NCBI GenBank assembly: GCA_043803765.1
Contig: JAZDJQ010000002.1
Location: forward strand, 1 to 21,398
From: Candidatus Iainarchaeum sp.
Lineage (GTDB): Archaea; Iainarchaeota; Iainarchaeia; Iainarchaeales; VGJJ01
Reading direction: 5' to 3'
DNA: 21,398 bases
Positions 9,247-10,556 of the stretch are shown here, one piece after another; position 1 is the first letter of the stretch, and each line of letters starts with the position of its first letter. Below the pieces are notes generated by a model, which saw only the letters and a list, made by a program, of their open reading frames with translations, was not told where the DNA came from and searched no databases. Position numbers and translations under genes: made by a program.

Positions 9247-9266
9247 AAAAAAAATTCCTTTTAAAT
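9247..9266 (+). promoter_or_regulatory. BRE/TATA promoter of the tRNA-Gln locus
   Basis: An A-run followed by TTTTAAAT (9259-9266), about 27 nt before the tRNA 5' fragment at 9293. Confidence 0.65.
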
Positions 9267-9292: not shown

Positions 9293-9314
9293 AGCCCCGT
9301 GGTCTAGTGGTCTA
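9293..9314 (+). pseudogene. 5' fragment of a tRNA-Gln-type gene (acceptor 5' strand, D stem 5' strand, D loop)
   Basis: AGCCCCG TG GTCT AGTGGTCTA. AGCCCCG pairs 7/7 with CGGGGCT at 10549-10555. Confidence 0.8.
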
Positions 9315-9445
9315 TCCTCCAGCTATTTTTCATAGGGCTCTTATTTTCTCGGTTTAAACCTTTCTTCGCTGCGCTCCAAAAGGATTTAATACATCCAAAA
9401 TCGGCGAAATCGTCCGTGGAAAACCGATTCCATGGAGGAAAACAC

Positions 9446-10435
9446 ATGATTACGGCAGAATGCTGTCGGAATGATTTTAGAAGTGAAAATTGTTCCAGTA
9501 CAATGGACGACGAATTATCTATTTTTGACGCCAAATCCGATTGGTTAAATGATGAGATTTATGTGCACGGGGTTAAGGATGAAGTTAAGGAAATCGCAGA
9601 TAGATTTGGGCCGGTAAAACTCTCAAGAATTCTGAAAGTTGACTATAACAATTGTTTTAGGGAGTGGACTTGTGGAAGAAATCCTATTCGATTGTCTAAG
9701 TTAATAGAGATGATTAATTTATGCGATTCGGAAACGCAAATCAAGCTAAAAGAAAAAATTGATACTAAAGAGTTGAAAATTGGTTGTCGATACTCTCCAC
9801 ATAAAATGAGGTTTCCATCGCACGTTTCAGAAAATCTCGCATATTTAGCTGGATTAATTTTAGGAGATGGAACACTTGCTGGAGATTCGTCGAATACGAG
9901 GGGAAATTGGAACGTAGGTACATTATTTGACGACGAAAACCATCAGAAAATTTATGATAAACTAATAGAGAATGAATTTCAAATTACGCCTAATCACCAA
10001 AAGGATGAAAAGAATTGTTGGTTATCCATTTTCGGTTCAAAGACAACGCAATGGTTCTGGCGATCTTTTTTCGACATGCATAATGGATACAAAGCAAGCA
10101 TCATAACGATACCAAACGTAATTGCAAATTCTTCGAATGGAAGACTACGTGTGACCCTACTTCAAGGATTATTCGATTCGGATGGAACAATTACAAAAAG
10201 AGGTCACGTTCAGTATGCATCCACAAGCAAAGAAATGATTGAACAAGTAAGCAAAATTCTATTTTCGTTTGGTATCGCTCATGGAAAAGCATCATGGCTA
10301 AAAGATCCAAAATATCGGATGCTCCATTCTATTGCGATTCGGCGCAAAAGCAGCGTTTTAAGCTTTGCCAAGCAAATAGGGTTTAGGCACCCGCGTAAAG
10401 CGGCAATATTAGCCAAGTTTAGCCTCGTCGTCTAG
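9446..10435 (+). CDS. Free-standing two-motif LAGLIDADG homing endonuclease with N-terminal HTH-like region
   Basis: LAYLAGLILGDGT and LLQGLFDSDGT motifs, YASTSKEMIEQV, FAKQIGFRHPRK. GGAGG (9434-9438) precedes ATG 9446. No intein splicing termini. The stop TAG lies inside the downstream tRNA. Confidence 0.92.
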   Translation: MITAECCRNDFRSENCSSTMDDELSIFDAKSDWLNDEIYVHGVKDEVKEIADRFGPVKLSRILKVDYNNCFREWTCGRNPIRLSKLIEMINLCDSETQIKLKEKIDTKELKIGCRYSPHKMRFPSHVSENLAYLAGLILGDGTLAGDSSNTRGNWNVGTLFDDENHQKIYDKLIENEFQITPNHQKDEKNCWLSIFGSKTTQWFWRSFFDMHNGYKASIITIPNVIANSSNGRLRVTLLQGLFDSDGTITKRGHVQYASTSKEMIEQVSKILFSFGIAHGKASWLKDPKYRMLHSIAIRRKSSVLSFAKQIGFRHPRKAAILAKFSLVV

Positions 10436-10495
10436 CCTGGACAAAGATGCCGGCCTCTGAAGCCGGAGACGGGAGTTCGAATCTCCCCGAGGCTA
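10421..10495 (+). tRNA. tRNA-Gln(CTG), intact
   Basis: AGCCTCG TC GTCT AGCCTGGACAA AGAT G CCGGC CT-CTG-AA GCCGG AGAC GGGAG TTCGAAT CTCCC CGAGGCT A. It has the A1-U72 pair of archaeal tRNA-Gln. Anticodon at 10457-10459. Confidence 0.95.
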
Positions 10496-10498
10496 CAT

Positions 10499-10536
10499 GT
10501 TTTTTCGCCAACCTTTTGCATTAGCAAAAGGCTGGT
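10499..10536 (+). terminator. T-run plus hairpin after tRNA-Gln
   Basis: GTTTTTT, then GCCA-A-CCTTTTGC(ATTA)GCAAAAGG-C-TGGT. Confidence 0.55.
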
Positions 10537-10539
10537 TCT

Positions 10540-10556
10540 GAATCTCCGCGGGGCTA
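10540..10556 (+). pseudogene. 3' fragment of a tRNA-Gln-type gene (T loop end, T stem 3' strand, acceptor 3' strand)
   Basis: GAAT CTCCG CGGGGCT A is 15/17 identical to the 3' end of the intact tRNA. Its acceptor strand matches the 9293 fragment perfectly. Confidence 0.8.

Follow-up and report, generated by a model that had tools for sequence, protein, structure and literature searches.

A free-standing LAGLIDADG nuclease gene running into tRNA-Gln(CUG), between displaced pieces of another tRNA-Gln allele, in an archaeal genome

A 21,398-nt contig of the DPANN archaeon Candidatus Iainarchaeum sp. (JAZDJQ010000002.1, assembly GCA_043803765.1), hereafter the window, contains a gene for a predicted LAGLIDADG homing endonuclease whose reading frame runs into a complete tRNA-Gln(CUG) gene, and the two lie between the displaced 5' and 3' ends of a tRNA-Gln of another allele. 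The original prediction, made from the letters of the window, had placed here a 5' fragment, the LAGLIDADG open reading frame (ORF), a complete tRNA-Gln, a T-run with a hairpin and a 3' fragment, and all five are present (Table 1). We propose that a free-standing LAGLIDADG cassette invaded a naive tRNA-Gln gene near its D-loop and either supplied or co-converted the working allele, the 3' relic probably being older; the comparisons below leave this account evenly poised between right and wrong. The window's genome, designated G000 in the comparisons, is a 93% complete assembly of 1.02 Mb in 19 contigs with 46 tRNA genes, the window being one whole contig.

Two tRNA-Gln alleles at one locus

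The outer acceptor halves, AGCCCCG and CGGGGCT, pair with each other at seven of seven positions, while the inner gene carries AGCCTCG and CGAGGCT. The inner allele has the acceptor pair U5:A68 and the T stem GGGAG/CTCCC, and two differences between it and the outer 3' relic fall at paired positions, 65 and 68. Compensation is seen directly at the acceptor pair 5:68; at the T-stem pair 49:65 it is likely, as the outer CTCCG corresponds to the CGGAG/CTCCG T stem of genome G005. Because the outer halves pair mutually and the inner gene differs from them in both acceptor and T stem, outer and inner sequences represent two alleles, which is what the original prediction had held; the same relationship is seen at a tRNA-Val locus of G033, described below.

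The first 16 nt of the outer 5' relic are identical (16/16) to the working tRNA-Gln(CUG) of G005, and the last 16 nt of the outer 3' relic are identical (16/16) to the 3' end of that gene in G005 and of its working counterpart in G002. The outer pieces are the common allele of the genus. The inner tRNA represents another allele, coherent in itself, with differences from the G005 gene at about 14 of 75 positions, compensated pairs among them (counted by hand). A functional tRNA is expected to evolve more slowly than neutrally evolving relics, so the inner gene was probably replaced rather than altered in place. Divergence of the inner tRNA in situ is accordingly unlikely, given that the presumably neutral relics retain the genus-typical sequence and it is the working gene that departs from it.

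Searches with patterns for the two ends of tRNA-Gln return the relics and the inner gene only: the 5'-end pattern matches the window at 9293-9307 and 10421-10435 and the 3'-end pattern at 10479-10495 and 10540-10556, with 0.00 matches expected in each case from shuffled sequence (100 shuffles for the 5' pattern). A 20-nt probe taken from the genome's own tRNA-Gln(UUG) also matches 9294-9313 with at most two mismatches. The secure core of the 5' relic is 9293-9310, and the final bases of 9293-9314 may belong to the anti-Shine-Dalgarno segment of the leader that follows. At the other end, T-loop likeness of the 3' relic begins already at 10534. A 24-nt exact stretch across the junction between the putative upstream promoter and the 5' relic had no match in metagenome contigs. 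The TATA-like box at 9259-9266, read by eye, is probably the promoter of the older tRNA-Gln; its distance from the relic is as in nuclease-free alleles, those of G002 and G003 having their own TATA-like box approximately 29-39 nt upstream.

The inner gene is the sole tRNA-Gln(CUG) gene of the assembly, and the TAG stop codon of the nuclease lies inside it, at tRNA positions 13-15. The ORFs of at least 60 aa between the outer fragments are the nuclease and one 76-aa antisense ORF, judged spurious, and the earlier observation that the locus has no integrase, intein or intron was borne out. The nuclease ORF is intact. Two details of the earlier reading needed correction. The frame is open also from 9416 and 9446, and ATG 9503 is the start that aligns with those of 17 orthologues; the stretch before it, previously treated as anonymous spacer, contains a conserved structured leader.

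The nuclease, its leader and its family

The product of the nuclease gene matches the Pfam family LAGLIDADG_3 (PF14528) with an E-value of 9.9e-17 and a score of 61.4 bits against a cut-off of 22.5, and the same family is matched by 18 of 18 orthologues. Its two motif cores read GLILGDG and GLFDSDG, and residues D122, G123, D227 and G228, which include the acidic residues of both motifs, are invariant in all 18 aligned orthologues. Profile searches matched PI-PfuI (E 5.7e-10) and I-DmoI (E 3.6e-7), with both domains covered at profile positions of about 105-300. On this basis the window ORF is plausibly a catalytically competent, single-chain, two-domain LAGLIDADG nuclease. In the 18-orthologue alignment a conserved N-terminal domain of about 100 aa precedes the two LAGLIDADG domains; by eye it looks like a helix-turn-helix (HTH) domain, though it matched no family. 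The profile matches indicate the same single-chain two-domain fold as I-DmoI and other archaeal LAGLIDADG enzymes. Those enzymes, however, are encoded in spliced rRNA introns or in inteins, whereas the window enzyme lies in neither and has the additional N-terminal domain. G000 has no second close copy that is free-standing; its other LAGLIDADG matches are two inteins and one free-standing paralogue.

Distribution was assessed in 196 genomes of the order (Iainarchaeota-type metagenome-assembled genomes). One genome represents each species in this collection, so recent transfers and polymorphism within populations are not visible in it. A single-protein search for close relatives found none and an alignment-based scan found them. 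In a protein search of the 196 genomes, recognisable orthologues were detected in 27, including 6 of the 17 in the genus (G000, G001, G012, G015, G016 and G017). Among the 27, 23 are intact, three are interrupted by a stop codon (G116, G111 and G025) and one is cut by a contig end. At the DNA level, a search of 41 relatives recovered the nuclease and tRNA together at 66-72% identity in four genomes of the genus and one of another genus. The tRNA-Gln gene starts at, or within a few tens of nucleotides of, the end of the ORF in 25 of 26 fetched loci.

Within the genus, G002 and G003 have the empty site that the original prediction had anticipated: a syntenic, intact tRNA-Gln(CUG) with an AGCCCCG/AGCCCCT-type acceptor, pyrG downstream and no nuclease. 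Other genomes hold remnants. In G004 and G005 the last ~100 nt of the nuclease ORF are kept before tRNA-Gln, with other genes inserted upstream, and eight nuclease-free genomes of family f24 keep the last ~85-130 nt, in most cases from a TATA-like GTTTTAAG box onward. BLAST detected remnants in at least 10 genomes, of which six sequences were read (G004, G005 and four from f24); they are 71-81% identical in their BLAST matches and no longer coding (loci L007, L008 and L218-L221). Since this stretch persists where the nuclease has been lost, it is suggested to serve now as promoter and 5' leader of the tRNA, and in the window the corresponding elements appear to be embedded in the 3' end of the nuclease gene (10355-10420), starting at the box at 10355-10363. 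Presence and absence of the nuclease at one syntenic locus, and decaying copies alongside intact ones, are the two marks of a homing gene found here. On sequence comparison the nuclease-tRNA-Gln unit is nonetheless old and co-diverging with its host families, not a recent arrival from afar.

Many of the tRNA-Gln(CUG) genes beside orthologous nucleases in other families (L038-L054) contain an insert of approximately 30-45 nt in the D arm, an intron in the anticodon loop, or both. ARAGORN missed or mistyped many of these genes because of their D-arm or anticodon introns, for example by calling a tRNA-Gly with a 60-nt intron.

Positions 9315-9448 of the window are a diverged copy of a conserved structured leader of ~150 nt. 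Its segment 9326-9402 has counterparts of 76-89% identity in the DNA of other families of the order, and the leader motif occurs in 54 of the 196 genomes, with up to five copies per genome; reversed-pattern controls gave at most one match in any genome. RNAalifold applied to 29 copies gave 33 consensus pairs, 10 of them with compensatory changes. In the predicted structure an upstream anti-Shine-Dalgarno segment of the ATCACCTCC type pairs with the GGAGGTGAT ribosome-binding site, and the leader is therefore modelled as occluding that site and gating translation. The window copy matched no Rfam family at E-values up to 1. Leader loci (L142-L211 and the window copy) have a detectable LAGLIDADG ORF downstream in 23 of 39 usable cases, a count obtained with a hidden Markov model built from Gln orthologues only, which can miss paralogues, and with L196 left out. 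Import of the cassette from another family, considered because the leader motif is hardly found elsewhere in the genus, is not supported by the nuclease tree, in which G000 groups with G001 and G015. Several cassettes contain a conserved ORF of ~40-45 aa between leader and nuclease that ends in ..ELTDRELWIL..GGDF-like sequence (L030 at ~543-677 in G033; L212, reverse strand, ~2050-2180 in G136; L217, reverse strand, ~1430-1545 in G127); in the window's cassette it is absent or degenerate.

The association with tRNA genes extends beyond glutamine. All 20 further free-standing paralogue loci examined have tRNA sequence at the ORF end, 15 in direct orientation, four inverted and one as a displaced 3' fragment; in the inverted cases the ORF runs antisense into the 3' side of the tRNA. 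Paralogues adjoin tRNA genes for Leu, Arg, Thr, Ile and Val, among others. One of these paralogues lies in G000 itself, where an HTH-LAGLIDADG ORF of 349 aa (contig C14, 41424-42473; 25% identical to the window protein) has its end within tRNA-Arg(GCG) (42459-42533). The 3' end of that tRNA recurs 81 nt downstream as a 14/16 copy preceded by a GTGCGTTCCCG-type motif. A 5'-like stretch at C14 41327 has mismatches at 4 of 14 positions and was not counted, about 0.8 such matches being expected by chance in the 2.4 kb scanned.

In a quick maximum-likelihood tree of 67 proteins (a quick IQ-TREE search), the nucleases group by their neighbouring tRNA. A Gln clade of 22 rows and a Leu clade of 19 rows each have a support of 99, and two Arg groups and a Thr group have supports of 98-99. 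The tree needs 10 changes of tRNA label against a mean of 36.8 for shuffled labels, and none of 200 shuffles gave a value as low. Eight labels were set by hand, and the tree omits L051, L055-L058 and L060 (partial, interrupted or intein), L189 (the same place as L038), L196 and L201. The one row labelled Gln outside the Gln clade, L205, actually adjoins an inverted tRNA-Ile, and two rows labelled 'none' (L184 and L031) adjoin an inverted tRNA-Thr. As the clades track tRNA identity, the proteins appear to form a family of tRNA-gene-specific homing endonucleases that needs neither intron nor intein, each lineage having long been tied to one tRNA species. The tie fits target-specific homing enzymes, and it fits vertical descent as well.

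tRNA-end copies and relics elsewhere

Twelve other tRNA genes among the 46 of G000 are followed, 41-195 nt downstream, by a copy of their last 16 nt (at most three mismatches) and have no nuclease; four of these copies match their tRNA at 16/16 and four at 15/16. The copied part spans the last 13-16 nt of the tRNA, and the trailer after the copy often resembles that of the tRNA itself. Most copies are preceded by a module comprising a T-run, a hairpin and the T-loop-like sequence GGTTCTGAAT (or GTGCGTTCYG), and GGTTCTGAAT is constant regardless of the T-loop of the tRNA concerned. The module is found in 8 of the 16 other genomes of the genus, and the nuclease-free tRNA-Gln(CUG) of G002 has two in tandem. 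Because the hairpin with its 3' fragment is a genome-wide module, the reading of the window as a single gutted tRNA gene is not required.

The hairpin also occurs without tRNA sequence. Tandem arrays of a T-run and a CCCCGGGG..AAAAAGGCCG hairpin, with a period of approximately 48 nt, lie away from tRNA copies or lack them altogether, and by sequence the hairpin is best described as a repeat family of the genus resembling repetitive extragenic palindromes. Other identities for the modules were rejected. A casposon or miniature casposon is disfavoured by the lack of terminal inverted repeats by eye and by the lack of any match to Cas1 (PF01867) in the 93%-complete assembly, while a C/D-box RNA, a primer-binding-site-like copy and a T-loop repair scar are disfavoured by the lack of a C box, the lack of a following CCA and the constancy of GGTTCTGAAT.

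Copies of 5' ends are also present. Five other tRNAs in G000 are preceded, at a distance of 72-185 nt, by a copy of their first 16 nt, which in one case belongs to a three-unit array. The copies correspond to the first 15-17 nt of Arg and Ser tRNAs and are followed by a GC hairpin with a T-rich loop; a second hairpin holds a TATA-like box ~30-38 nt before the tRNA. The three tandem units precede tRNA-Arg(CCG), and the outermost of them is the most diverged.

At nuclease loci, relics are infrequent. Among the 26 orthologous loci, a 5' fragment upstream of the nuclease is present in G000 and G116, and a second 3' end within 900 nt in G000, G116 and G193. The G116 locus, from another family, begins with an older 5' piece and its mirror-image hairpin; a further 5' piece, a nuclease gene with a frameshift, tRNA-Gln, a hairpin and a 3' copy follow in that order. 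In G033 a paralogous nuclease adjoins tRNA-Val; the outer halves GGGCCTA and TAGGCCC pair mutually, and the inner gene has GGGCCTG and CAGGCCC. At a third locus (L241; contig C4 of G002, 818-1975) a complete tRNA-Thr(CGT) is followed 4 nt later by the start of a nuclease gene, and the ORF ends at the 3' two-thirds of another tRNA-Thr(CGT) allele, identical in its middle part (40/41) and different in its acceptor strand. The topology of this locus differs from that of the window. These three loci show displaced parts of other alleles next to nuclease genes.

Table 1. Features of the nuclease-tRNA-Gln locus, and sites of tRNA-end copies and hairpin arrays in the same assembly
Feature	Contig	Coordinates	Strand	Remarks
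TATA-like box, A/T-rich	window	9259-9266	+	27-34 nt 5' of the outer 5' fragment; read by eye
Outer 5' relic of the older tRNA-Gln	window	9293-9314	+	acceptor 5' strand, D-stem 5' strand, D-loop
Structured leader, diverged copy	window	9315-9448	+	anti-Shine-Dalgarno segment, motif 9338-9359, nested helices, Shine-Dalgarno GGAGG, ATG 9446
LAGLIDADG homing-endonuclease gene, 310 aa	window	9503-10435	+	Pfam LAGLIDADG_3
TATA-like box GTTTTAAGC	window	10355-10363	+	within the 3' coding end of the nuclease
Complete tRNA-Gln(CUG)	window	10421-10495	+	ARAGORN; Rfam RF00005, 59.6 bits
T-run and 12-bp hairpin	window	10500-10535	+	T-run 10500-10505; hairpin arms 10508-10519 and 10524-10535, one mismatch
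Outer 3' relic	window	10534-10556	+	T-loop-like GGTTCTGAAT (one extra base), T-stem 3' strand, acceptor 3' strand, discriminator
3' modules, examples	C1	48906-48973; 50053-50263
3' modules, examples	C18	91776-91851; 92975-93082; 18530-18590; 114320-114411
3' module, example	C7	2915-2986
3' module, example	C4	39149-39258
5'-copy sites	C18	91420-91701; 15855-15927
5'-copy sites	C7	3062-3155; 19236-19310
5'-copy site	C9	10795-10883
Hairpin array	C6	12330-12520
Hairpin array	C18	54758-55020
Hairpin array	C12	36696-36790
Hairpin array	C11	56218-56290

Proposed history and its alternatives

In the history we propose, the cassette would comprise a leader that pairs its ribosome-binding site with an anti-Shine-Dalgarno segment, the nuclease frame running into the tRNA, and a complete tRNA gene whose promoter likely lies in the last ~65 nt of the nuclease gene. 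It would have entered a resident, nuclease-free tRNA-Gln(CUG) at about position 18-22, in the D-loop, and stranded the old promoter together with ~20 nt from the start of the old tRNA on its upstream side. The gene now at work would then have the allele of the cassette, which either came in whole or was copied across the remaining ~55 nt by co-conversion as the double-strand break was repaired, so that the essential tRNA would have been kept by gene replacement or duplication rather than by splicing. The downstream hairpin and 3' relic would already have been in place, as hairpin/3'-copy modules are frequent and independent of nucleases, and the relic, lying outside the conversion tract, would have kept the older sequence. 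The anatomy of the locus, the family to which the nuclease belongs, its presence and absence at one syntenic site, the tie of nuclease clades to tRNA species and the two alleles are shown directly; where the enzyme cuts, how the break was repaired, in which order the events came and what the promoters do are inferred from sequence comparison.

Several observations weigh against this history. The 5' fragment is absent from 24 of the 26 orthologous loci, and at leader-bearing paralogue loci (at most 4/16 mismatches) a 5' fragment was found in 0 of 13 and a 3' fragment in 1 of 13, such that insertion inside the tRNA body appears documented for a few loci only. These counts also tell against the earlier suggestion that the retained ends regularly serve as homology arms, fragments being present at 2 of 26 (5') and 3 of 26 (3') orthologous loci. 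A cut site wholly inside the tRNA would make the working copy a target too, and sequence comparison of the inner and nuclease-free alleles did not find a consistent protective difference. Nor did the 'recoded' rescue tRNA of the original prediction hold up: there is no consistent recoding between nuclease-linked and nuclease-free tRNA-Gln alleles, and G012 (with nuclease) and G002 (without) have the same anticodon arm. The DNA identity of the nuclease to genus members (66-72%) equals that of pyrG (66-71%), and families f1, f24, f11 and f2 of the Gln clade each form one supported group (99, 97, 99 and 100), a pattern without sign of horizontal spread; long vertical descent, or even a host function, would fit as well as recurrent homing. 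The hairpin/3'-copy modules may not be independent of past nuclease cassettes, and the leader would have joined the old D-loop at an illegitimate junction.

The explanation closest to the home-and-rescue nest originally predicted is a single event, in which one cassette (leader, nuclease, complete resistant tRNA and terminator hairpin) replaced the middle of a naive tRNA-Gln during the repair of a single double-strand break, with the outer pieces as homology arms. The nuclease-free modules would then be scars of similar cassettes, the nuclease having been lost when the 5' relic recombined with the inner 5' end. This remains a serious contender, albeit an unlikely one. The outer pieces share a single allele, from which the inner gene departs by compensated pairs, the pattern is the same at the Val locus of G033, and both relics are present at the Gln locus of G116; the two alleles of the earlier proposal stand, nuclease-tRNA loci with outer relics recur independently in these two genomes, and the single gutted gene is dispensable. 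Relic arrays whose outermost unit is the most diverged (the three 5' units at tRNA-Arg(CCG) in G000 and three 3' units at tRNA-Ser in G002) are what repeated nested replacement predicts. In addition, there are more 3' than 5' relics, as would result from deletions between direct repeats that take the nuclease together with the 5' relic, and relics in the distant family f17 are flanked by this type of hairpin as well, mirrored at the 5' side. However, most nuclease-free 3' copies are identical or nearly identical to their own tRNA, which suggests duplication more than the arrival of a foreign allele, and the hairpin is a general repeat with arrays far from tRNAs. The 5' and 3' relics, moreover, co-occur at three tRNAs, close to the ~1.7 expected if 6/46 and 13/46 are independent (hand arithmetic), and the fragments are missing at most nuclease loci. 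At the other extreme, the nuclease may be a domesticated or resident HTH-LAGLIDADG gene that no longer homes, an old vertical partner of tRNA-Gln acting, for example, as a regulator or a DNA- or RNA-processing factor, with the outer tRNA pieces arising from unrelated small-repeat or recombination events. That the nuclease tree follows host families, with divergence like that of pyrG, is in keeping with this, as are the intact ORF in 23 of 27 genomes, the likely tRNA promoter that is embedded in the ORF and survives its loss as a remnant, and the commonness of tRNA-end copies without any nuclease. We nevertheless regard domestication as improbable. The patchy occurrence (27/196 in the order and 6/17 in the genus), together with interrupted copies and remnants, argues against an essential host role, and the catalytic Asp residues are invariant, a pattern that inactivated LAGLIDADG-derived regulators such as WhiA reportedly do not share. 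There are also many paralogue lineages, each at one tRNA species and in two orientations, and displaced fragments of other alleles adjoin nuclease genes.

Classical site-specific integration, in which the fragments would be att remnants of integrase- or casposon-type elements and the nuclease a passenger, is very improbable. Archaeal integrative elements do leave tRNA fragments, one example being the tRNA-Thr of Caldiarchaeum (PMC3293823), and G000 itself has classical-looking repeats at tRNA-Phe and tRNA-Tyr. Against this, no integrase lies between the fragments, the three tyrosine recombinases (PF00589) of the assembly being on contigs C1, C14 and C17, Cas1 is likewise lacking from the assembly, and the inserts at other tRNAs are merely 41-195 nt long. 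Further, a 5' and a 3' relic of one allele flanking a complete gene of a different allele is not a product of conservative integration. Least credible of all is an artefact, whether a metagenome misassembly or a split or intron-containing tRNA with the outer pieces as exons. That the window is a whole contig of a 19-contig assembly speaks for an artefact, yet the same nuclease-tRNA fusion was assembled independently in 26 other genomes and relic nests in two other assemblies. As for a split gene, the product of the outer pieces alone would have no anticodon arm, and ARAGORN (with intron search) and Rfam report the inner tRNA only. The missing middle exon, named in the original prediction as what would speak against it, was searched for in the 1.02-Mb assembly: no anticodon-arm exon fitting the outer pieces was found, two chance-like regular-expression matches lacking tRNA features.

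Beyond the invasion of one tRNA-Gln gene by a cassette, a wider reading, which we consider doubtful but arguable, is that the family comprises splicing-free 'cut-and-replace' drives. Each would cut one tRNA species, carry a complete, protected copy and repeatedly overwrite residents, the carried tRNA coming with its own promoter, terminator hairpin and translation-gating leader. Engineered home-and-rescue and cleave-and-rescue drives, which are synthetic and Cas9-based, cut a wild-type essential gene and carry a working copy of it. The logic would be the same here, except that resistance of the carried tRNA is putative and no consistent recoding accompanies it. If this reading were true, the relics behind 13 and before 6 of the 46 tRNA genes would be a fossil record of overwriting, and selfish nucleases would be a main driver of tRNA allele turnover in reduced archaeal genomes.

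Homing endonucleases are thought to persist in essential genes by residing in introns or inteins. The alternatives described are mainly from phages and organelles, where the nuclease gene is free-standing beside its target or lies beside a duplicated gene end. The window locus represents a third setting, a diversified LAGLIDADG family welded to tRNA genes in a cellular archaeal chromosome, and its interest lies in the size of the family, the fusion of ORF and tRNA, the putative embedded promoter and the predicted gating leader. It offers a testable system for how a nuclease targets a small conserved tRNA gene without killing its host, for the overwriting of tRNA alleles by selfish elements and for the origin of tRNA fragments that confuse annotation. 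Full-text searches of open-access papers and preprints returned no description of this nuclease-tRNA family, which is large and apparently undescribed. The earlier supposition that the architecture is new stands to that extent, but it has precedents in T4 SegB and in organellar nuclease genes.

The nearest functional precedent is SegB of phage T4, a free-standing GIY-YIG homing endonuclease encoded in the phage tRNA gene cluster (PMC2330249). SegB cuts within tRNA genes, its site containing the T-psi-C motif GGTTCRANTCC, and drives its own inheritance and that of neighbouring tRNA genes through repair from the donor (PMC2330249). Both nucleases are free-standing beside tRNA genes without an intron or intein. 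They differ in enzyme family and host (GIY-YIG in a phage, LAGLIDADG in an archaeal chromosome), in that the ORF here overlaps one specific tRNA and each lineage is tied to one tRNA species, and in that relics remain and activity is predicted only. Architecturally, the nearest precedent is the mitochondrial DNA of Endoconidiophora resinifera, where the stretch from cob to a partial C-terminal cob duplicate contains degenerate LAGLIDADG ORFs, and atp6 too has a C-terminal duplicate behind it (PMC6279837). As in the window, a functional gene and a nuclease gene are accompanied by a displaced part of that same gene, the host gene being kept by duplication or replacement of its end. The differences are that protein genes in mitochondria are concerned there, and here a 75-nt tRNA in a cellular chromosome with a conserved structured leader, the nuclease lying upstream of the tRNA or inverted at its 3' side. 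Allomyces atp6 is said to be a similar organellar case. In Caldiarchaeum, a 5' fragment of tRNA-Thr lies 1.8 kb upstream, with a recombinase-bearing, repeated transposable insert (PMC3293823). There, as in the window, ~1-2 kb of mobile DNA stands between a tRNA fragment and a complete tRNA gene; the Caldiarchaeum insert encodes a recombinase, whereas the window insert encodes a LAGLIDADG nuclease and no recombinase.

Some further features of G000 were recorded. The repeat at tRNA-Phe is a 30-nt exact copy of its 3' part, 822 nt downstream (C1 55758-56610), and copies of the 3' end of tRNA-Tyr lie 5.6 and 6.4 kb away (C12 129384-135874), with another on C9 at ~5773; these att-like repeats mark candidate integrated elements. 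A tyrosine recombinase gene lies ~0.5 kb from tRNA-Met on C14. Two ORFs of ~1000 aa (C5 17697-20699 and C18 130010-133003) have intein-like inserts of the LAGLIDADG type, and one of the two resembles ribonucleotide reductase by eye.

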